Source: Promethearchaeia archaeon
GTDB lineage: Archaea; Asgardarchaeota; Lokiarchaeia; Sigyniarchaeales; SOKP01
Length of the DNA: 13,566 nucleotides
Assembly (NCBI GenBank): GCA_046497275.1
Contig: JAWOFX010000129.1
Location: 1-13,566, forward strand
Direction: 5' to 3'
Shown in pieces: positions 127 to 13,226 of this stretch (positions within the stretch are counted from its first letter, which is position 1; every line of letters begins with the position of its first letter). The translations under genes and the position numbers were made by a program. The notes below the pieces were generated by a model that worked only from the letters and a program-made list of their open reading frames with translations, was not told the origin of the DNA and searched no databases.

Positions 127-2040
127 TTAAATTTCAGAAAGAAAAAGATCTGCAATGGTTATCCATTTTGCTTGGAAATCAGAGTTAATGGAGCTTTTTT
201 CCACTAGTTCTTTCCCTTTTTTAAGATTTTTAATTGATAAATTATCATTCCCAAGGGCATTATAGCAAATACCTAGTTTAATATAAGACTGATAAATAAA
301 CCATTCGTCACTACACATAACAATTGCTTTCAAAAACTTTTTAATCGCTTCATCATATTCTTCAAAGTACATCAGGATCTCTCCATAATTATCGTAATAA
401 ATCCCTTTATCGGGATCATCATCAATAAGTGTTTGCATTATCTCTAAAGCTTCTTTCCTCCTGTTTAAATATTGGAGCCAATAGGCTTTATAGCTTAGGA
501 GATCATTATTATTTGAATATTTTTGGATTAAATTCTCAATAATTTTTAATCCTGCCTTAATATTTTTCTTTTTCTTAAGAATGGATGCCTTCTTCATTTT
601 AATGTTTATTTCTCTTTCGGGGAAAAGATCCAACATCTCATCTAATATTTTAATTATTTCATTATATTGATTATAATAGATTAAGATTTTAATTTTAGAT
701 TCATATAAATCGATGTTTTGCGGATTAAATTCAATTTTATTATCAATTTTTCTCACTTTTTCTTCGAATTGATCCGATAAGCCTTTACTCAGTTGCGAAT
801 TAAACGTCTCCGACATATTCTCCCAAATTAACCATTCCAGTTTATCAGAAGTCTCGTAAATATTTTTCAAATTCGGGTTTAATGAGATTTTATAAGCCAA
901 ATACTTAATATACTCTGGAAAAAATTCTTTTAATGATTTTTTAAAATCTTTATGAAATAAAGATTCACAAGCTTCCTCTAATAACCGATCTATCATCGAA
1001 TCATCAACAGAATCTAATAGCATATCTAATTTTTTCGAGTTAAGAATATTTAAATAAGCAATTTTATTAATATAGCTCTCTGTAAGAACTTGGAGTATCC
1101 GTTCTAATTTATTCTCTGTTAAAAAATAAAATATACCTCCAGAAGGACCATTCAATTTAAATAATTGATTTTGATATATTTTACCTTCAGACAATTCATC
1201 AATATAATAACTAAGAATCGTGGTTTTTATTTTGAATTTTTTGGAAAAATCTTCCTTTGATACAAAATTAGGATATCTATCAGGATGATTCAACGCAAGA
1301 AATAGAAGTATTTTATAAAATAGTTCTTCATCTTTTAGAACTTGGTTAACTCTCTCATATGGAAGATTTAAGATATAATTTATAAAATGGAACTGAATTT
1401 CTTTATCCCTAATTCTAAATTTATCAAAAAAATTAAGAATTCTTTGATTTCTTTCTTCAATAATTTTACCCTCCTCTTCTAAAATGGTTTGTCGGTCTAA
1501 ATTGTAATTGTGCAGCATTCTTGAATATTCTAATTTACCAGTTCCAGTTATCTTGTATTTGCCATTTTCTTTTATTATAAAACCCTCTTCGATTAATGGC
1601 TTTAAATTCTTCGATAATGAGGAAGTATTTATTGTTAACGGTTCTTTAAGAAAATCTGCTCTTTTACAGTAAGGGTTGTTATAGAGCATCCACAATATCC
1701 AATCAGAATAATTTCTTCCATTTTTTAGAATTAATTTAGGAGGATAATTTACCTTTCTTATATTTTTAGTTGCTCTCGATAATTCATAATATTTTTTTTT
1801 CCCTTTTGGATTAATTTTATAATTCCCTCTTGAGATTTTATCAATATATCCTTTATTCTTTAATTCTCTTAAATGTCTGGATAATGTACCAATAGGAATC
1901 TCGATTGGTTCTTCGGTAAAATAAGACCATTGACACACTTCATTATTATATAACATCCAGAGAATTATAAGATCATAATCTGGTTTTGTCTGTGTGGATG
2001 AATCATAGATTTCTTTTGGAGGATAATTTATAAGAACCAT
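127..2040 (-). CDS. Tandem winged helix-turn-helix + C-terminal TPR protein, putative transcriptional regulator (637 aa)
   Basis: Two clear internal repeats: aa 4-87 (INYPPK..IILWMLYNN..GTLSRHLRELKNKGYI..GNYKINPKG) and aa 97-176 (VNYPPK..WILWMLYNN..SSLSKNLKPLIEEGFI..GKYKITGTG), both with an HTH-plus-wing pattern. A degenerate third copy lies at about aa 225-305. TPR-like motifs in the last ~200 aa (e.g. YYDNYGEILMYFEEYDEAIKKFLKA). Confidence 0.8.
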   Translation of the reverse strand: MVLINYPPKEIYDSSTQTKPDYDLIILWMLYNNEVCQWSYFTEEPIEIPIGTLSRHLRELKNKGYIDKISRGNYKINPKGKKKYYELSRATKNIRKVNYPPKLILKNGRNYSDWILWMLYNNPYCKRADFLKEPLTINTSSLSKNLKPLIEEGFIIKENGKYKITGTGKLEYSRMLHNYNLDRQTILEEEGKIIEERNQRILNFFDKFRIRDKEIQFHFINYILNLPYERVNQVLKDEELFYKILLFLALNHPDRYPNFVSKEDFSKKFKIKTTILSYYIDELSEGKIYQNQLFKLNGPSGGIFYFLTENKLERILQVLTESYINKIAYLNILNSKKLDMLLDSVDDSMIDRLLEEACESLFHKDFKKSLKEFFPEYIKYLAYKISLNPNLKNIYETSDKLEWLIWENMSETFNSQLSKGLSDQFEEKVRKIDNKIEFNPQNIDLYESKIKILIYYNQYNEIIKILDEMLDLFPEREINIKMKKASILKKKKNIKAGLKIIENLIQKYSNNNDLLSYKAYWLQYLNRRKEALEIMQTLIDDDPDKGIYYDNYGEILMYFEEYDEAIKKFLKAIVMCSDEWFIYQSYIKLGICYNALGNDNLSIKNLKKGKELVEKSSINSDFQAKWITIADLFLSEI

Positions 2041-2151: not shown

Positions 2152-2235
2152 CCTATTCATCTATAAAAGCAAGAGAGTACTGTTTTTTAATGAATAAAGT
2201 TTTTCAAAAAAACTCAAAATTAATCAAAAAATGAG

Positions 2236-5200
2236 TTGATAACAATTAAATATATAAAAAATAAAAAACGAAAATCAAGAATTATTCTAATTCTAATATC
2301 TTTCTTACTTCTCATGCCCATCTTTACCAGTCTTATTCAAGGAGAAACCAGTTTTATAACAAAAATAGAAGATTTTGAACGTGGTAATCTTAAAAACTCT
2401 CATATATATTATAGAGAGACTGAAGGGGGGGGTTATGATGTGTATGTGAATGGTGATTATGCTTACATAGCAGATGATTGGAAAGGACTAGCAATAATAG
2501 ATATCTCAGATCCGACCAACCCGGGAGCTCCCATTTACGAGGATATACCATCTGGTTGGGCTCAGGCTGTATATATAAGTGGAAATTATGCATATGTCGC
2601 ATATACCGGAATGACAAAAAATGGATTAGCGATTATTGATGTTTCCGATCCTGAACATCCAGTGTTAGTTGCTAATGTCGATACTGAATGTGCTTGGGAT
2701 GTATATGTAAGCGGCAACTACGCATATGTTGCGGATGATAATAATGGTTTAGCGATTATAGATATTTCTGATCCTACCATTCCAGTAAGTATTGCTAATA
2801 TAACAACATATGATGTGGCTAACGGAGTATTTATAAGCGGTAATTATGCATATGTTGCAGATGGAAATGCTGGTTTGACTGTAATTGATGTTTCTGATCC
2901 TACCAATCCGGGAATTGCGGCGAACGAAGATACGGACGGATACGCACAAGCTGTATATGTAAGCGGTAATGATGCCTTTATTGCTGATGGAAGTGCGGGA
3001 TTAGTATATATCAATGTGCAAAGTCCTACTAACCCAGGAACTCCATATTATGAGAATACTTACGGAGCTGTAGATGTTGTTATCAGCGGAGATTATGCAT
3101 ATACTGTTGATTTATATGGAATGGTTGTTTTTGATATACATTCTCCACCTTTTCCAAATGATATTGCTTATGAAGATATTGATGGATATACAAGAGGAAT
3201 ATGTATAGAAGGAAACTATGCTTATATTTCTGGCAGTGTAGGTTTAGCAGTGGTAGATATATCTAAAAACATAGACCCATTATTAATCAATAATGAAATA
3301 ACAATGGGAGAGGCAATACAAGTCTGCATTGATGGAAATTATGCTTTTATTGCAGATTATGACCAGGGTTTGACTGTGGTTAATATCTTTGATCCTACCC
3401 ATCCAGCAATAGTTGCTAATATAAATACAACGGATTATGCATGGGATGTGGATGTCGATGGAAATTATGCCTATGTAGCCTCTAGTTATTCGGGCTTAGC
3501 AATTATCGATATTAAATATCCAGACACGCCAGGAGCGCCAGTTTATTTAGATACAGATGGTTGTGCAAGAGCTGTAGACATAAGTGGTGATTATGCCTAT
3601 GTAGCGGATGGCTTGGAAGGCTTAAAGGTCATTGATATCAGTGACCCAACTATTCCCGTATTGGCTGGGCAGAAAGACACGGCTGGGTATGCAACTGATG
3701 TCAAGATAGATGGAGATTATGCCTATATGACCGTTGGTGCTGATGGGTTAGCAATCATCGATATCAAGAATCCAAACTCGCCAGGAGCACCAATTTACAT
3801 AGATCCGGTTTATTATGCTCATGGAGTAGACATCCGTGGTGATTTTGCTTATATAGCGGAACATAGTAATGTTCAAGGAGGCGTTTTAAACGTAATTGAT
3901 ATCTCCAATCCTCTTAGTCCCCTATTAGCCTCAAGAATAGGTACTCTTACATCAAGTGCATATAAAGTTTATGTGAGTGGTAATTATGCATATATTGCTA
4001 GCGAAGATAGGCTAACAGTAATAGATCTTAAATGGGATGGAACTGGATCGCATTATACGCATTCAGATACGATTAATGAGTGTATTGGAGTATATGTAGA
4101 GGGTGATTATGCGTATGTGGCTAGTCGTTCTGAAGGATTAGTGGTGGTTCAAATTAGAGAGAGAGCTGATCTGGATGATCCAATCATTACTGAAAACCCA
4201 AGTGACTTGCTTCTCGAATGTGGTTATACCGGAAAGATAATCGCATGGAGAGCAACTGATCTTAATCCTGATACCTATACTATTGAACTTCAAGGTTCCG
4301 GAAACGTAGCAGGCCCAACAGCGTGGTCTAGCGGAGTTGTAGTAACATATGATATTCCTAATGGATTAGGAGTAGGCACTTATACATACACAATCAATTT
4401 CACGGATACTAATGGTAATTTTGCAACTGATACAGTAGAAGTTACTGTTCAAGATACCGAAAATCCCGTGATTATAGATTCTCCAGACGATAAAATAGTT
4501 GGATTAGGATATTCTGGCGTGAATTTTCAATGGACGGCAACCGATGAAAATCCCTACAATTATACGATCGAACTTCAAGGTTCTGGAAATGTAGTAGATT
4601 CAACTGGATGGTCGAGCGGAATACCGATAGTTTATAATGTACCAGAGGGATTGGGATTGGGTGAATATTATTACACCATCAATTTCACTGATGATTATGG
4701 ACATTTTATCCCAGATACGGCAAAGTTAAGCGTCCAAGATATAAAAGATCCTGTAATTACAGATGCCCCGACAGATATAGCTGTTGAGCTAGGATATCCA
4801 GGTACCGTGAATTTACAATGGAATGCAACGGATGATAATCCTAATACCTATACTATTGAACTTCAAGGCTCTGGAAGCGTGGCAGGACCAACTGCGTGGT
4901 CTAGTGGGGTCGCAGTAAATTATGATATCCCAAACGGATTACCATTAGGAGAATATTATTATATAATCAATTATACGGACGATTATCAGAATTTTGTGAT
5001 TGACACTGTTAAATTCACTGTAGGTGATACAGTAGATCCTATAATTACTGATACTCCAGCAGATTATGAGTGTTTTATTGGATATGCAGATGTGTGTCTC
5101 TTTTGGATTGCCACCGATGCTCATCCCGCTACATTCACTGTTGAGCACCAAGGTCATGGTATCGTAGCAGGACCAACTCCCTGGGCGAGTGGAACTAATG

Positions 5201-5424
5201 TGAGTTATACAATCCCAGAAGAATTATCTGTAGGAGAACACTTTTTTACCATCAATTTTACTGATCTTGCTGGAAATTTTGCCACTGATACTGTAAAAAT
5301 TACTGTCAATGAGGAGAGTTCCGGTGAAGAAACTCCTGGTATTCCTTTTGGAAATTGGTTTTTGATTTCCATGACAATTTCCATTATTGGATTAGTGTTT
5401 ATTCAAAATAAAAGAAAAAAATAG
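2236..5424 (+). CDS. Large cell-surface protein: signal peptide, LVIVD-repeat beta-propellers, four Ig-like repeats, C-terminal sorting/anchor segment (1062 aa)
   Basis: Basic N-region (KYIKNKKRKSR) followed by a hydrophobic stretch; 14 repeats of type V.V.G.YAYVAD...GL.IIDISDP..P; four 95-96 aa beta-rich repeats; C-terminus PGIPFGNWFLISMTISIIGLVFIQNKRKK. Many N-x-S/T sequons (NIT, NTT, NFT, NYT, NAT, NVS). TTG start as annotated. Confidence 0.9.
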   Translation: MITIKYIKNKKRKSRIILILISFLLLMPIFTSLIQGETSFITKIEDFERGNLKNSHIYYRETEGGGYDVYVNGDYAYIADDWKGLAIIDISDPTNPGAPIYEDIPSGWAQAVYISGNYAYVAYTGMTKNGLAIIDVSDPEHPVLVANVDTECAWDVYVSGNYAYVADDNNGLAIIDISDPTIPVSIANITTYDVANGVFISGNYAYVADGNAGLTVIDVSDPTNPGIAANEDTDGYAQAVYVSGNDAFIADGSAGLVYINVQSPTNPGTPYYENTYGAVDVVISGDYAYTVDLYGMVVFDIHSPPFPNDIAYEDIDGYTRGICIEGNYAYISGSVGLAVVDISKNIDPLLINNEITMGEAIQVCIDGNYAFIADYDQGLTVVNIFDPTHPAIVANINTTDYAWDVDVDGNYAYVASSYSGLAIIDIKYPDTPGAPVYLDTDGCARAVDISGDYAYVADGLEGLKVIDISDPTIPVLAGQKDTAGYATDVKIDGDYAYMTVGADGLAIIDIKNPNSPGAPIYIDPVYYAHGVDIRGDFAYIAEHSNVQGGVLNVIDISNPLSPLLASRIGTLTSSAYKVYVSGNYAYIASEDRLTVIDLKWDGTGSHYTHSDTINECIGVYVEGDYAYVASRSEGLVVVQIRERADLDDPIITENPSDLLLECGYTGKIIAWRATDLNPDTYTIELQGSGNVAGPTAWSSGVVVTYDIPNGLGVGTYTYTINFTDTNGNFATDTVEVTVQDTENPVIIDSPDDKIVGLGYSGVNFQWTATDENPYNYTIELQGSGNVVDSTGWSSGIPIVYNVPEGLGLGEYYYTINFTDDYGHFIPDTAKLSVQDIKDPVITDAPTDIAVELGYPGTVNLQWNATDDNPNTYTIELQGSGSVAGPTAWSSGVAVNYDIPNGLPLGEYYYIINYTDDYQNFVIDTVKFTVGDTVDPIITDTPADYECFIGYADVCLFWIATDAHPATFTVEHQGHGIVAGPTPWASGTNVSYTIPEELSVGEHFFTINFTDLAGNFATDTVKITVNEESSGEETPGIPFGNWFLISMTISIIGLVFIQNKRKK
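2425..4167 (+). repeat. 14 LVIVD-type repeats (~41-47 aa each), probably two 7-bladed propellers
   Basis: Counted by eye from GGYDVYVNGDYAYIAD to ECIGVYVEGDYAYVAS. Repeats 7, 13 and 14 depart from the usual DP..P ending. The 2x7 fold is inferred from the count. Confidence 0.8.
4168..5310 (+). repeat. Four tandem Ig-like beta-sandwich repeats A-D (starts 4168, 4453, 4738, 5026)
   Basis: Consensus D..DP.I...P.D.....GY......W.ATD.NP..YTIE.QG.G.V.....W.SG..V.Y..P.GL..G.Y..TINFTD..GNF..DTV...V. Spacings are 285, 285 and 288 nt. Confidence 0.85.
5335..5421 (+). other. C-terminal protein-sorting signal (PGF-CTERM/Loki-CTERM-like)
   Basis: Short P/G/aromatic motif (PGIPFGNW), ~17 hydrophobic residues and a basic tail (NKRKK). 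This is the tripartite layout of archaeosortase-type substrates. The specific family assignment is from recall, not a search. Confidence 0.7.
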
Positions 5425-5432
5425 TCAAGATC

Positions 5433-5455
5433 TTTTTTTTTAATTTTCTTTTTTT
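5433..5455 (+). terminator. U-rich archaeal-type terminator after the surface-protein gene
   Basis: T9 run starting 9 nt after the stop, followed by more T runs; conserved in the duplicate copy. Confidence 0.6.
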
Positions 5456-5503: not shown

Positions 5504-5630
5504 GTTTAATTTTAAAATAAGTCCAAAAAGTAATTGAAATAGATTTTTAATTTATAGCAATTTTTTTTAAGAAGGCGATATAAATAAAAGTATTTAGTAT
5601 TTTAGTAAAATTCAATATTTAACTCTAAAA

Positions 5631-7580
5631 ATGATATCAGAAACAATAAAACAAGCCAAAAACTTATTCGAGAACGGAAAGTTTGAGAAATCTTTAATCA
5701 TATTAGATAAAGTAGGGAATTTAGAAGATCTAAAGGATTCAGAAAAGCTTTCTTATAATCTTTTAAAAAGCTCTCTTTTTTTTAGATTCAGAAGGGATGA
5801 AGAGTGTCTTCGATATGCTGAAATCACATATCAACAAGCTCAAAATTTAAACCATAAAATGTTATCCATTGATGCTCTTCTCAATAAGTCGTGGGCTTTA
5901 TTTTGGTTTGGAGATTTCGAGCAAGCGAATATTTCAATCAAGACTGCTGAAAAAATTCTTAACAATCTAAAAAATATATCTGATTGTGATTATGAGAGGA
6001 GAAAAGCATTTATTTATTTTATCAAAGCTTGTAGGTCATGGTTTTTATCCGACTCCAAAGGATTAAAATATGCTAATAAAAGTCTGAAAATTCGTCAAAG
6101 GATTGGAAGAAAATATGAAATTGTAGAATCCTATAGTATTTTGAGTGGATTAATCACTCATTTTACTGATGATTTCGATAATGCTTTAGAGTTTTTAGAA
6201 AGATGTCATAAACTGGGTCTTGAAATCCATCATCCTTGGACAGAAACATTTGATCAAAAAAATTTTGGAGACATATATTACATAAAAGGTGATTTACATA
6301 GAGCTTTGAAGCATTATAAAAGAAGTACTAAGATTTTTGAAGAAAATAACAATTTAAATCCTATCCTCAGCACTTTTAGCGAGATTGGAAACGTATATAG
6401 AGAGATGGGGGATTTAACCGAATGTTGTAATTATCTTATCTATAGTTACGATATTTCAAAGAAAACTCAAAACTATTGGTTAAATAGTGAAATCATAACT
6501 AATATTATAGAAATTTTGGTTTTAAGAGGTAATATTAAAAAGGCTGAAATATATTTAAAAAAATTAGAAGGAATCTATAAAACGCATCCTAATAATAAGC
6601 GTTTTGAACATTCTTATCTTATTGCTAAAGCGCTTATATTAAAATTCAATCCTAGAATTAAATCTCAAGCCCAATCGCAAGAAATTTTCACAACTATTAT
6701 CAAAGATCAAACTCTTAAAAATGATTATTTGATAACTGCCTTATTAAATCAATGTGAATTGCTTTTACAAGAACTTGTTTTAACAAATAGAGATGAAATA
6801 ATTGAGGAAATAAATTCCTTAATTGAAATACTATTAGAGAGAACAAAAAATTTAAGATCATATTGGATTTTATCAGAGACTCTAGTTCTACAAGCAAAAG
6901 TAGCATTATTGACATTTAAATTGATAAAAGCAAGAAAATTACTTACAAAAGCACAATTCATAGCAGAAAAAAATGGTTTAAATCGCTTATCTGTAAAAAT
7001 TTCTCATGAACATGATGAGCTATTACAAAAGTTCAAAAAATGGCAACAATTAAAGGATTCAGAATCACCCATATCTGAACGAATCAAATTAACTAATTTA
7101 AGCGAACAAATCTCCAATTTGGTTCAAAAACGTAGAATAAGTATTTCCAAAATAGTCGAAGAAAGTCCGATTATGATCCTGATTTTTTCTGAAGGAGGTA
7201 ATCCAGTTTATTCACAGGTTTTTGCTGAAGAAAATTCTTTTAAATATCATCTTTTTGGAGGATTATTAACAACTTTGGATTATTTTATAAATGAAATCTT
7301 TTCTGAGGGTCTCGATAGGGCCATATTTGGAAAATATACACTATTAATTAATAAAATAAGTCCGTTTATTATCGTTTATATTTTTAAAGGAAAATCATAT
7401 TTGGCCTTACATAGGATCAAACATTTTTGCAAAACTATTCGGGATGAGGGATCAATCTGGGAAAATTTAATAGATCGCTATCATCAAAATAAACTCATTC
7501 ATCAAAATGATATTCCTTTACTTGATCTAATGATAAGTAAAATATTTATTGAAAAAAGTATTGTCTTAGAAAATTTTTAA
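5631..7580 (+). CDS. TPR-repeat protein with C-terminal longin-like domain, paralog 1 (649 aa)
   Basis: TPR motifs (FGDIYYIKGDLHRALKHYKRS; IGNVYREMGDLTECCNYL). The C-terminal ~140 aa (from ~7158) show a longin-like pattern: IMILIFSEGGNPVYSQVF (beta hairpin), LFGGLLTTLDYFINEIF (helix), three strands, then helices. Confidence 0.85.
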   Translation: MISETIKQAKNLFENGKFEKSLIILDKVGNLEDLKDSEKLSYNLLKSSLFFRFRRDEECLRYAEITYQQAQNLNHKMLSIDALLNKSWALFWFGDFEQANISIKTAEKILNNLKNISDCDYERRKAFIYFIKACRSWFLSDSKGLKYANKSLKIRQRIGRKYEIVESYSILSGLITHFTDDFDNALEFLERCHKLGLEIHHPWTETFDQKNFGDIYYIKGDLHRALKHYKRSTKIFEENNNLNPILSTFSEIGNVYREMGDLTECCNYLIYSYDISKKTQNYWLNSEIITNIIEILVLRGNIKKAEIYLKKLEGIYKTHPNNKRFEHSYLIAKALILKFNPRIKSQAQSQEIFTTIIKDQTLKNDYLITALLNQCELLLQELVLTNRDEIIEEINSLIEILLERTKNLRSYWILSETLVLQAKVALLTFKLIKARKLLTKAQFIAEKNGLNRLSVKISHEHDELLQKFKKWQQLKDSESPISERIKLTNLSEQISNLVQKRRISISKIVEESPIMILIFSEGGNPVYSQVFAEENSFKYHLFGGLLTTLDYFINEIFSEGLDRAIFGKYTLLINKISPFIIVYIFKGKSYLALHRIKHFCKTIRDEGSIWENLIDRYHQNKLIHQNDIPLLDLMISKIFIEKSIVLENF

Positions 7581-7676: not shown

Positions 7677-7748
7677 ATGAGTTCAACCAAAATATTAAGA
7701 GCAAATAAATTATTCGAGAATGGAAAATTTCAAGAATTCCCCAAGTGA
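7677..7748 (+). pseudogene. 5' remnant of a fourth TPR-longin paralog (MSSTKILRANKLFENGKFQE|FPK*)
   Basis: Not in the ORF track. Aligns without gaps to the 10598 protein N-terminus (MKSKQIVEAKQLFEEGKFEE) and matches the 5631 gene in DNA (ttattcgagaatggaaaattt vs ttattcgagaacggaaagttt). Homology stops at about 7736, where surface-gene sequence starts. Confidence 0.85.
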
Positions 7749-8394
7749 CCTGATTCTCGAATGTGGATATACTGGTGAAAATATCTCATGGACAGCAACT
7801 GATGATAATCCTAATACCTATACGATTGAACTTCAAGGTTCTGGAATCGTGGCAGGACCAACTGCGTGGTCTAGTGGGGTCGCAGTAAATTATGATATAC
7901 CTAACGGATTCCCATTAGGAGAATATTATTATATAATCAATTATACGGACGATTATCAGAATTTTGTGATTGACACTGTTAAATTCACTGTAGGTGATAC
8001 AGTAGATCCTATAATTACTGATGCTCCAGCAGATTATGAGTGTTTTATTGGATATGCAGATGTGTGTCTCTTTTGGATTGCCACCGATGCTCATCCCGCT
8101 ACATTTACTGTTGAGCATCAAGGTCATGGTATTGTAGCAGGACCAAATCCTTGGATAAGTGGAAATAATATGAGTTATACTCTTCCAGAAGGGTTATCAG
8201 TGGGAGAACACTTTTTTACCATCAATTTTACTGATCTTGCTGGAAATTTTGCCACTGACACAGTAAAAATAACAATTCAAGAAGAAAATGGTGTTGACCC
8301 TCCTTCATCTATTCCTTTCGGAAATTGGTTTTTAGTTTTTATGACAATTTCCATTATTGGAATAGTGTTTATTCAAAATAAAAGAAAAAAATAG
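7720..8394 (+). pseudogene. 5'-truncated paralog of the surface-protein gene: two Ig-like repeats plus C-terminal anchor; frame still open (224 aa)
   Basis: Homology to the 2236 gene starts abruptly at about 7740 (cccaagtgac = 4197-4206). No signal peptide and no LVIVD part. The ATG at 7720 is an out-of-frame ATG inside the TPR remnant. Confidence 0.8.
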
Positions 8395-8402
8395 TCATGA
8401 TC

Positions 8403-8434
8403 TTTTTTTTTAATTTTATTTTTTAATTTTTTTT
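8403..8434 (+). terminator. U-rich terminator after the truncated surface-gene copy
   Basis: T9 and further T runs at the same distance from the stop as in copy 1. Confidence 0.55.
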
Positions 8435-8479
8435 ATCTCAAAAATTATTAGTCCATATTTCAACTTTATATATAAGTAA
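8435..8479. promoter_or_regulatory. Second copy of the 45-nt conserved block with TTTATATA
   Basis: Identical to 5459-5503; flanking DNA differs. Confidence 0.5.
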
Positions 8480-8578
8480 ATTCAATTTTAAAATGACAAT
8501 AGAAATTAATCGAAGGAGATTTTTTAATAATAATTTTTAAACTAGGCGATATAAATTATTTCTAAAAAGTTAGAGCAA

Positions 8579-10483
8579 GTGAGGAATTTAATCAAGAAAG
8601 ATAAAAACCAAAGTGCTATCGTTATTTTAAACGAAATTGAAGAAAAGGAAGATCTAGAACAAACAGAATTACTAAACTTATATCATTATAAAGCAACTGC
8701 TTTTATCAGATTGGGAAATTATCCGGAAACATTAAAGTATGCCAAAAAAGCTTATCGTATTATTCGTAAAAAAGGACTAAGTTCTCAGCTACTTGAATCA
8801 TTAATAATGTTAGGCCACTCGTCAAGTTGGTTGGGAAATTTCGAAAAAGGGTATCAATATTTAAACGATTCGGAGCAGATACTAAATAAACTTGCTGATC
8901 TTTCAGAAAAAAGAAGAATAAAATACGAAGCAATGATATGTCTTAGTAAGAATTGTGGATATATGCAAAAAGGAAAAAATGAACGAATTTATCATTTAGC
9001 AATGAAAGTTTTGAATCTAAGTGAACAAATTGATGATAAATTTGTTTTAGCTGAATTATATTATCAATTAGCATCAATTTATACATTTTATAAAATTGAT
9101 GTAAAAAAAGCTATTAAATATTCACAAAGTTGCCAAAATCTTGCAGAAGAGCTTGAAAATAAAACTATAATCGCCTTAAATTTAGTAACTATGGGGTCCA
9201 TTTATATAATGATAGGCGATTTAGAAAAAGCATTTTTTTATCATAAAGAAGCACTGAAAAATACTGATATCTTTATGATTAGAATGTCAATTTTTAATAA
9301 TCTTTCTATGATTTATTGCCAAAAAGGAGAATTAAATAAAGCTTTAGAATCACTCGAAAAAGCTTTTAATATAGCTGATAACAATAAAGCTCCTTATATG
9401 ATGATCAGCATACTAACGAGTATTATTGAGGTCTTGGTTTTAAAAAATGAAGCAAAAATAGCAGAGAATCATTTAATAACACTTAAAGATATAGCAGAAA
9501 AAGAGAAAAGCAAACTTGCTGAAATATATGCTAATTTCTGTGAAGCTCTCATCTTGAAATCAAAGAAACGCATCCAAGATCACGCAAAAGCACAAAGAAT
9601 TTTTGAAGAAATAATCCAAAAAGAGGAGTATTACGGAGAGCTAACAATGAAAGCTCTTATAAATCTTTGTGATCTATTTATCGAAGAATTTAGATTGACC
9701 TCTGAATTAGAAGTATTAGAAGACCTAAATCAATTTTTAGAAAAATTATTAATTATCGCAGAAGAACTTAATTCTTTTTGGATCTTAGCTGAAACATATC
9801 TTTTGCAAGCTAAAATTGTTTTATTAAAGGGAGATTTGAAGGCTACAAGGAAAATACTAATTGATGCTCAACATGTTGCAGAAGAGCACGACCTTAAATT
9901 GTTATTGGGTAAAATATCATATGAGCACGATAAGATTTTGAAAAGTTTGAAGACTTGGGAATCTCTTATTGAAAATGAAGCACCCTTAAAAGAACGTATA
10001 GAATTAGCTGAGCTAGATGTGCATATCGAAAATATGCTTTTCAATCGTAAAAAGAGTCTTGAGATCTCTGAAGAAGAACCTGTAATCATTTTCATTATAA
10101 GCGAGGGTGGAAATCCTCTCTTTTCCCATTCATTTATTGAGAATTTAAAATATGAATCGCACCTCTTTGGAGGATTTTTAACCACGATTGATTTTTTTAT
10201 CAAAGAGATGTTTTCGGAAGGTTTAGACAGAGCAGTGTTTGGGGATTATACTCTACTCATGAAATCCATTTCACCTTTTTTCATAACATATGTGTTTAAA
10301 GGAGATTCTTACTATGCCTTACAAAGAATAGGATATTTTACTGAAAAAATACAAAAAAATACCATTATTTGGAATAATTTAAAAAAAAGATTCCAACAAA
10401 ATAGGTCACTCCGATTAGAAGATATTCCCTCATTTGATTTATTATTAAGATCAGTTTTTATTGAGAAAAATATTCCTTTATAA
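8579..10483 (+). CDS. TPR-repeat protein with C-terminal longin-like domain, paralog 2 (634 aa from GTG; frame extends 8 codons upstream to ATT at 8555)
   Basis: TPR motifs (MGSIYIMIGDLEKAFFYHKEA; LSMIYCQKGELNKALESLEKA). Longin-like C-terminus from ~10070 (VIIFIISEGGNPLFSHSF..HLFGGFLTTIDFFIKEMFSEGLDRAVFGDYTLLMK). Confidence 0.85.
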   Translation: MRNLIKKDKNQSAIVILNEIEEKEDLEQTELLNLYHYKATAFIRLGNYPETLKYAKKAYRIIRKKGLSSQLLESLIMLGHSSSWLGNFEKGYQYLNDSEQILNKLADLSEKRRIKYEAMICLSKNCGYMQKGKNERIYHLAMKVLNLSEQIDDKFVLAELYYQLASIYTFYKIDVKKAIKYSQSCQNLAEELENKTIIALNLVTMGSIYIMIGDLEKAFFYHKEALKNTDIFMIRMSIFNNLSMIYCQKGELNKALESLEKAFNIADNNKAPYMMISILTSIIEVLVLKNEAKIAENHLITLKDIAEKEKSKLAEIYANFCEALILKSKKRIQDHAKAQRIFEEIIQKEEYYGELTMKALINLCDLFIEEFRLTSELEVLEDLNQFLEKLLIIAEELNSFWILAETYLLQAKIVLLKGDLKATRKILIDAQHVAEEHDLKLLLGKISYEHDKILKSLKTWESLIENEAPLKERIELAELDVHIENMLFNRKKSLEISEEEPVIIFIISEGGNPLFSHSFIENLKYESHLFGGFLTTIDFFIKEMFSEGLDRAVFGDYTLLMKSISPFFITYVFKGDSYYALQRIGYFTEKIQKNTIIWNNLKKRFQQNRSLRLEDIPSFDLLLRSVFIEKNIPL

Positions 10484-12659: not shown

Positions 12660-13226
12660 TTGTTAGATCATAATGAAAAAATGTCTAGTTCAGAAGATTT
12701 TATTTTTAAGATAACTTTAATCGGAGATGGGGCAGTTGGAAAGACTTCCTTGATAAAAAGATATACTCATGGGACTTTTGAAAAAGATTATATTAAGACT
12801 ATAGGTGCCCAATTTTCAAGATATAACAAAAAAATCGAGGGAGATGAGGTAGAATTAATATTTTGGGATATAGCAGGCCAAGATTTCCTTTTTTTACACC
12901 CTTTATTCTATAAAGAAAGTAAAGCGTGTATAATTGTATTTAGCCTCGAAGAAAATGATTTGGGTAATGATAGTTTTAAACATATAAAAGATTGGTATAA
13001 AGAACTTAAAAAATATTGTGGAGTTATCCCAGTTGTTTTATTGGCAAATAAAGTGGATTTAATAGATGAAAGTAATTTAAATACTACTAAAATTCAAAAT
13101 ATTGTAGATAAATATAACCTGCTTGATTTTTACACAACTTCAGCCAAAACTGGACAAGGAGTTATAGATGCCTTCAATAATATTATAAATAAACTATATC
13201 TCGATAGTAAAGCCTTAAGTGGATAA
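12660..13226 (+). CDS. Rab-like small GTPase of the Ras superfamily (likely start ATG 12681)
   Basis: G1 GDGAVGKT, G2 YIKTIG, G3 WDIAGQ, G4 NKVD, G5 SAK. No C-terminal cysteine for prenylation. Confidence 0.95.
   Translation: MLDHNEKMSSSEDFIFKITLIGDGAVGKTSLIKRYTHGTFEKDYIKTIGAQFSRYNKKIEGDEVELIFWDIAGQDFLFLHPLFYKESKACIIVFSLEENDLGNDSFKHIKDWYKELKKYCGVIPVVLLANKVDLIDESNLNTTKIQNIVDKYNLLDFYTTSAKTGQGVIDAFNNIINKLYLDSKALSG

Follow-up and report, generated by a model that had tools for sequence, protein, structure and literature searches.

A probable recombination scar between TPR-longin and surface-protein genes at an Asgard GTPase locus

Displaced gene remnants in described systems and the locus compared

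Orphan 3' fragments occur downstream of rhs and cdiA genes, and silent-cassette antigenic variation is known from the pilE/pilS genes of Neisseria and from vlsE of Borrelia. For the T6SS effector-immunity arrays of Vibrio cholerae, displaced remnants and sequential displacement were described (PMC5361080). Homology-facilitated illegitimate recombination, whereby one end is homologous and the other one illegitimate, is, as outlined in PMC3240628, an established way in which bacteria integrate foreign DNA, and for the Asgard archaea the longin and GTPase families were reported (10.1101/2020.10.19.343400).

The stretch of DNA analysed here, referred to as the window, is an entire contig of 13,566 bp belonging to a MAG of 3.85 Mb in 188 contigs (G000), whose homologues carry the database names Promethearchaeota or Lokiarchaeota. 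For comparison, one genome of the same genus (G002) and five genomes of another genus (G129, G154, G122, G136 and G158) are referred to throughout. The window encodes an HTH-TPR regulator (127-2040, minus strand), followed on the plus strand by an intact surface gene, designated S (2236-5424; Pfam LVIVD, E 2e-122, and Big_13). S comprises a signal peptide, an LVIVD double propeller, four Ig repeats (A starting at 4174, B at 4462, C at 4747 and D at 5035), a linker and a tail which is named merely a C-terminal membrane anchor, as no NCBIfam match for a sortase-type (PGF-CTERM) anchor was obtained. Further downstream, likewise on the plus strand, reside the TPR-longin genes T5631 (5631-7580; Pfam TPR_12 and TPR_MalT), T8579 (8558-10483; first canonical start GTG 8579) and T10598 (10598-12547), and as the last gene of the module a Ras/Rab-like small GTPase (12660-13226; Pfam Ras, E 3e-39). 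Two remnants are located between T5631 and T8579, one of a fourth TPR-longin gene (Xc) and one of a second, truncated surface gene (S').

The nearest known analogues of this arrangement appear to be the orphan 3' fragments that remain when alleles are displaced at rhs and cdiA and at the effector loci of T6SS. As in these systems, an incoming allele would have displaced a 5' part, while the start-less 3' fragment stays just downstream and shares with the new full-length gene a homologous stretch, through which it can recombine. Unlike in these systems, the fragment consists of a surface Ig-stalk/anchor module rather than of a toxin tip with its immunity gene, there is one remnant, the host is an archaeon, a regulator-type gene (TPR-longin) was truncated at the same joint, and recombination into S is putative. 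The locus also resembles pilE/pilS and vlsE in that a presumably promoter-less, 5'-truncated copy is found near a surface gene and mosaic identity tracts are present. It differs from them, however, by its single cassette, by the lack of a known initiating sequence and of any sign of programmed switching, and by a conversion which most simply ran from S into the remnant and hence in the opposite direction; a truncated copy beside its homologue was found, but multiple cassettes or, in the loci examined, a recurrence in relatives were not. With the Asgard module of TPR-longin protein, Rab-like GTPase and HTH-TPR regulator the locus shares the TPR repeats, the longin-like C-terminus and the Ras-family GTPase directly downstream. 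Unlike in the usual module, the TPR-longin gene is tripled, a fourth copy is destroyed and the module is interleaved with a variable surface-gene slot. Each of the three intact copies combines a TPR array and a longin-fold C-terminus with an adjoining small GTPase, whereas the stub keeps the N-terminal 20 codons only.

The join at 7737-7740

According to the original prediction, 20 codons homologous to TPR-longin N-termini run straight into DNA of Ig repeat A, which was confirmed by alignments on either side of 7737-7740. The Xc remnant (7677-7737, plus strand) comprises the start codon and 20 codons of X type and, when aligned with T5631 ATG to ATG, is 70% identical to it over 61 nt. The distance is the same to both intact X-type starts, T5631 and T10598 (42/60 nt), and blastn inside the window matched the stub to TPR-longin starts with E values of 0.001 and 0.004. 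In a six-frame translation of the whole 3.85-Mb genome, the motif A[KN]xLFExGxF was found at three sites only, these being the starts of T5631 and T10598 and the Xc stub. On the other side, homology to Ig repeat A sets in at 7740 with the exact 10-mer CCCAAGTGAC, whereby the repeat is entered at its codon 8, and 7741-7803 share 52/63 identities with Ig repeat A of S. As the TPR-longin match ends at 7737 and the repeat homology starts at 7740, the breakpoint of the illegitimate join lies within 7737-7740 (plus strand), where the homology switches abruptly. Inspection of the breakpoint for microhomology, as had been proposed, gave at most 1-3 nt, and neither hairpins nor repeats were found at or near it. 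An EcoRI site (GAATTC, 7734-7739) overlaps the breakpoint, which is probably a coincidence; the window holds 4 such sites in total as compared to 7.7 expected by chance.

At the join, the Ig frame is shifted by +1 relative to the TPR-longin frame and therefore no fusion protein is encoded; the frame across the join (MSSTKILRANKLFENGKFQE followed by FPK) comprises 23 codons and extends from ATG 7677 to the TGA at 7746-7748 (7677-7748, plus strand). The 224-aa ORF which is annotated by NCBI (S'c; 7720-8394, plus strand) starts with 7 codons which are frame-shifted or stem from the junction, followed by two Ig repeats, the linker and the anchor. Its ATG at 7720 is made up of the Asn codon AAT and the G of the next codon, read in the +1 frame of the TPR-longin remnant, while the counterpart of this Asn codon in T5631 is AAC, hence giving no ATG. 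S' has lost its signal peptide, the two propellers and, from Ig repeat A, the initial 7 codons, and the TPR and longin body of Xc is missing at the scar. The ORF had been proposed to be a by-product of the junction, and both its fortuitous ATG and the absence of a signal peptide support this; judged by its sequence, it is a pseudogene remnant and no gene in its own right. A conserved intact gene of this arrangement, which had been named as the finding contrary to the prediction, was absent from 61 relatives and, near-identical strains aside, from the protein database, where the short matches turned out to be contig-end truncations or proteins bearing a signal peptide of their own. As a separate observation, four database ORFs of ~210-220 aa (P0012, P0017, P0018 and P0021) comprise two Ig repeats and the anchor and have a common start point, xExGYTG, within the repeat; they may represent gene-caller artefacts, truncations at contig ends or additional remnants. 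Taken together, homologies to two different intact genes, an abrupt switch between them, the loss of essential parts, a disrupted frame and an arrangement which is unconserved as an intact gene in relatives characterize a pseudogene scar, and that the join is a genuine recombination scar is considered highly probable (roughly 0.85).

The window being a whole short contig of a 188-contig MAG, an assembly chimera of two strains or of non-adjacent loci was considered. In its favour, S and S' share identical runs of 109 nt, and a sister assembly takes another path. No k-mer is common to both sides at 7737-7740, however, so that a de Bruijn graph would have had nothing to mis-join; both sides place in the same genus, and no orphan remainder of either gene, be it an Xc body or an S-like propeller, was found elsewhere in the genome. 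Moreover, the junction ORF is found on a second NCBI contig of different size (10,706 bp), known at the protein level, where a single residue differs and the N-terminus stems from the same junction. A chimera is hence regarded as quite improbable. The other path is seen in a third contig (8,970 bp) without a separate 224-aa ORF, which encodes P0045, a protein whose residues 1-913 are those of S and which continues with the S' tail. Its crossover lies inside the 109-nt identical run (7914-8022), and the identity to S' holds from that run onward. T8579 is carried by three contigs in all and T5631 by two. The P0045 contig represents either a 2,970-bp deletion haplotype, by which the canonical order is restored, or loop-skipping by the assembler, and both the hybrid first repeat of S' described below and the S/S' chimera could be assembly effects.

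Ancestry of the surface-gene remnant, the TPR-longin genes and their slot

Comparison with S and with the S gene of G129 revealed S' to be a mosaic. Its repeat-A-like segment (7740-7800, plus strand) matches repeat A of the G000 S gene at 52/63 positions and that of G129 S likewise, the pairwise identities among S', S and G129 S being 52, 52 and 53 of 63. The following repeat-C-like block (Block 1; 7801-8106, plus strand) shows a dS of 0.078 versus S, includes the 109-nt identical run and looks like a recent gene-conversion tract with flow from S into S'. As the switch from repeat A to repeat C at ~7801 coincides with the left end of this main tract, one out-of-register conversion can explain the two missing repeats. 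Old divergence was found in Block 2 (8107-8346, plus strand), where dS amounts to 0.56 versus S and to 0.56 versus G129 S, with 0.87 between S and G129 S. Here, the nucleotide identity of S' is 83-86% to the S genes of other genera versus 80.5% to S, and the linker of S' represents the family consensus while that of S is derived. The anchor, the stop codon and a 162-bp 3' flank (8347-8556, plus strand) are common to S' and S, the homology stopping at the start of the Y-type gene; the first ~70 nt of this region are 86% and the remainder 69% identical, with three indels, and S' returns to near identity with S up to ~8460. Outside the converted tracts, roughly equal distances separate S, S' and G129 S, and the S' branch carries 8 synonymous and 10 non-synonymous changes, as compared to a neutral expectation of 1:3.5 (P=0.03). 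From the constraint on its own branch and the equal distances it follows that S' spent most of its history as a functional surface gene evolving on its own, which later was probably overwritten patchwise by conversion from S. Since the stub and S' each represent a third lineage and no fresh copies of window genes, a complete Xc and a complete S' must once have existed.

It may be asked whether the 224-aa ORF is maintained, be it as a small two-Ig membrane protein or as a silent donor cassette for S. Its 224 codons are intact and without indel, as compared to three indels in the 162-nt flank, dN/dS on the S' branch is below 1, conversion tracts and the exact S(1-913)/S' chimera of another assembly exist, and natural short two-Ig members occur in the family. 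However, the natural short member in G048 possesses a signal peptide whereas this ORF has none, its start is a frame-shifted accident missing from T5631, the cassette is a single one, and no relative holds a fusion of a TPR-longin start to Ig repeats. Low dN/dS, in turn, can predate the truncation, and an intact frame is what is expected of a young remnant: 4.1% of the single changes in the ORF create a stop codon, the probability of encountering no stop being 0.58 at 2% neutral divergence, and the open frame is thus compatible with a young remnant. Being 5'-truncated, without start context, and located 2.3 kb downstream of S, the remnant is likely promoter-less and unexpressed, and its maintenance is considered unlikely.

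The TPR-longin genes were assigned to two clades, X and Y, in a maximum-likelihood tree with 100/100 support each. T5631, T10598, Ta and Tb of G002, the X gene of G122 and the T gene of G022 constitute the X clade, in which T10598 and G002 Tb are sisters (99/99 support), while the Y clade unites T8579 with its orthologues of G129, G154, G122, G136 and G158, to which it is 54-64% identical. In line with this, T5631 is 35% identical to T8579 and 52% to T10598. For the C-terminal 169 residues, the AF2 model (pLDDT 70.5) shows the order strand-strand-helix-strand-strand-strand-helix-helix, and Foldseek matched it to the longin domains of AP sigma, zeta-COP, Mon1-Ccz1, TRAPP and Sec22b (E 3e-4 to 1e-2, TM 0.5-0.6); going by this model, the longin label holds at fold level. 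The idea of T5631 being an X/Y chimera, which was based on its 3' end and spacer resembling those of T8579, was dismissed, as the DIPxLD...IFxEK tail predates the split of the two clades.

A number of further observations were made on these genes. The Y-type N-terminus IISxELEE/ISKKLEQ is conserved and follows right after an in-frame stop and the GGGG/GGCGATAT motif, with no ATG, GTG or TTG at hand (window 8545-8580; L080, L081, L079); in T8579 it starts ahead of GTG 8579, and in G129 and G136 the first canonical start of the Y gene is located ~40 codons further downstream. This suggests ATT or ATC as the start codon of Y-type genes. In G122, the longin domain of the X gene (L078 8104-10056) resembles the Y-type longin of the same genus, and the three longin domains of G000 are unusually alike (62-68%), which hints at conversion or co-evolution among adjacent TPR-longin paralogues serving one GTPase. 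Tandem arrays of six or more TPR-longin genes are found in some genomes of the family (G025:C33, G020:C3), and at E <=0.001 the TPR-longin family matched 13,793 representatives.

Gene order in relatives allowed the slot to be traced. In G002, the order is regulator, an unrelated surface protein, Ta, Tb and GTPase, with neither a remnant nor a T8579-type gene. The five genomes of the other genus show the order regulator, S-family gene, in part a second surface gene (G122, G136 and G158), Y gene, in part an X gene, and GTPase. Window positions 7765-10346 align with the S-spacer-Y region of G129 in one colinear blastn alignment (74%), and, given this and the shared order, S' occupies the ancestral surface-gene slot directly upstream of T8579; the pairing of T5631 with the stub mirrors the Ta-Tb adjacency of G002. 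In other genomes the slot is filled by unrelated surface genes. S itself and its counterpart in G129 are 84.7% identical at the nucleotide level over a stretch which opens 14 nt ahead of the start codon and closes 30 nt past the stop (window 2222-5455, L080), and this similarity drops sharply at the gene ends, the neighbouring regulator being 65% identical. Between G000 and G129, dS is 0.42 for S, 1.33 for the Y gene, 1.75 for the GTPase and 3.8 for the regulator. The low dS of S relative to its flanks, together with the sharp ends, argues for a horizontal exchange of a gene-sized surface cassette, and on this comparative basis the surface gene is taken to be a cassette which is exchanged between genera.

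Downstream of S, a second and older junction (J1) is located at ~5598. The 3' flank of S is homologous to the spacer between S' and T8579 up to its end at 5563-5597 (plus strand), which holds AGGCGATATAAAT, a ribosome-binding-like motif preceding Y-type genes; this motif is kept after S up to ~5597, where divergence begins, suggesting that a Y gene once followed S. Beyond ~5597, ~33 nt are weakly like the region upstream of G002 Ta, with TAAAATTCA in common.

Routes to the join and what the locus means

The original prediction assumed a deletion of several kb in situ, which removed most of a fourth TPR-longin gene and the front of a second surface gene out of an ancestral array with the unit surface, TPR, TPR present twice. 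The truncation of both genes at an illegitimate join held; the in-situ deletion is indistinguishable from a one-sided integration. The duplicated unit did not stand, as T5631 and T8579, at 35% identity, belong to different clades, T5631 is closer to T10598, and S' is not sister to S. A single recent partial tandem duplication, reaching from the interior of S to codon 20 of a downstream X gene, fares no better, even though the two halves are colinear in outline (3' part of S, spacer, TPR-longin gene, spacer, X-type start). It would give rise to equally young sister copies, whereas T5631 and T8579 derive from ancient separate clades, S' is not nearest to S outside the converted tracts, the stub is merely 70% identical to the T10598 start, and T5631 has no Y-derived 3' end. 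Paired paralogues which are closest to each other and of similar age were thus not found, and on the grounds of paralogue identities and the tree simple tandem duplication was rejected as extremely improbable.

The join is best explained as a product of surface-cassette turnover at a conserved Asgard locus, which comprises an HTH-TPR regulator, a surface gene, one or more TPR-longin genes and a Rab-like GTPase. The DNA missing at the join amounts to ~4 kb, composed of ~1.9 kb from Xc, a spacer and 1.96 kb from S'. At about even odds, it was lost upon the one-sided import of S-T5631-Xc, which was joined illegitimately to the resident S'. The resident locus would have had the order regulator, S', spacer, T8579, T10598 and GTPase, and the donor, a related lineage, the order regulator, S, Xa (T5631) and Xc. 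At the left end, a homologous crossover would have taken place in the regulator gene or in the 5' part of the surface gene, and at the right end codon 20 of Xc would have been joined non-homologously to codon 8 of Ig repeat A of S'. By this, an intact S and T5631 would have been gained at the expense of the remaining Xc (~1.9 kb) and of the first ~1.96 kb of S'. The S' remnant may still recombine with the upstream S, whereby a conversion tract covering 7801-8106 would have made the A/C hybrid first repeat. Import is preferred because it requires fewer events, because both parental orders occur in relatives and because horizontal exchange of S was shown directly. The route is reconstructed from arrangements in more distant relatives, a donor or recipient with exactly these alleles not having been found among them, and due to the older junction at ~5598 in the left module more events took place than the minimal model needs. 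To our knowledge, no case of homology-facilitated illegitimate recombination is known from Asgard archaea. With the system outlined in PMC3240628 for transformable bacteria and E. coli conjugation, the proposed import would share the one-step additive integration, the little or no microhomology and the loss of resident sequence at the joint; it differs from what is outlined there in being archaeal and in that the process is deduced from its product alone.

As an alternative to import, a deletion of ~4 kb in a two-cassette array, reaching from codon 21 of Xc to codon 8 of repeat A of S', predicts the same junction anatomy and is mechanically simple. The order proposed to have preceded it is regulator, S, T5631, complete Xc, complete S', T8579, T10598 and GTPase. 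Multi-cassette slots do exist (G122, G136, G158), as do six TPR-longin genes in a row (G025), yet the proposed order itself is absent from 61 relatives, from 135 genomes of the family and from one metagenome scan, a prior additive integration and hence at least one more event is required, and a version with strict duplicate units fails on the 35% identity of T5631 and T8579 and their different clades. In-situ deletion in a two-cassette array is hence put forward tentatively and at less than even odds; in a longer array it is nearly as likely as import. The synteny check that had been proposed did not yield the undeleted allele in any of these sets. In the metagenome scan, a Y orthologue with 64% identity was the only find in the search for this allele or an intact Xc, a search with the N-terminal region for intact Xc returned only the cluster of T5631 itself, and among the best 150 representatives (1.84 billion proteins) no N-terminus is nearer to the stub than those of T5631 and T10598. 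Comparable remnants beside TPR-longin genes were not found in the loci examined, G000 having one remnant only.

Going beyond the import of S-T5631-Xc itself, the locus might represent a surface-gene replacement caught half-way, in which the 3' remnant acts as an orphan cassette. By recombining with S, it would swap the membrane-proximal Ig repeat, the linker and the anchor, delete the imported TPR-longin gene and restore the canonical order, with the 13.6-kb and P0045 forms coexisting; the S/S' chimera P0045 would then correspond to a main gene capturing the orphan tip in rhs/cdiA. This is a doubtful proposal, but if true it would be the first rhs/cdiA-like orphan-module dynamic for an Asgard archaeon, located at a TPR-longin/Rab-like GTPase slot.

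A scar next to a gene remnant is an ordinary kind of object in an interesting place. As an immediate consequence, the 224-aa ORF of NCBI is to be read as a pseudogene fragment and the counts for this genome are corrected to three intact TPR-longin genes plus one stub and to one intact surface gene plus one remnant. A conserved Asgard module of regulator, TPR-longin protein and Rab-like GTPase is physically tied to a surface-gene slot which is exchanged between genera, and this hints at a joint function of surface protein and GTPase module. The slot is reshuffled via illegitimate recombination, conversion and probably deletion, which provides a concrete and testable view of how Asgard cell-surface proteins diversify.
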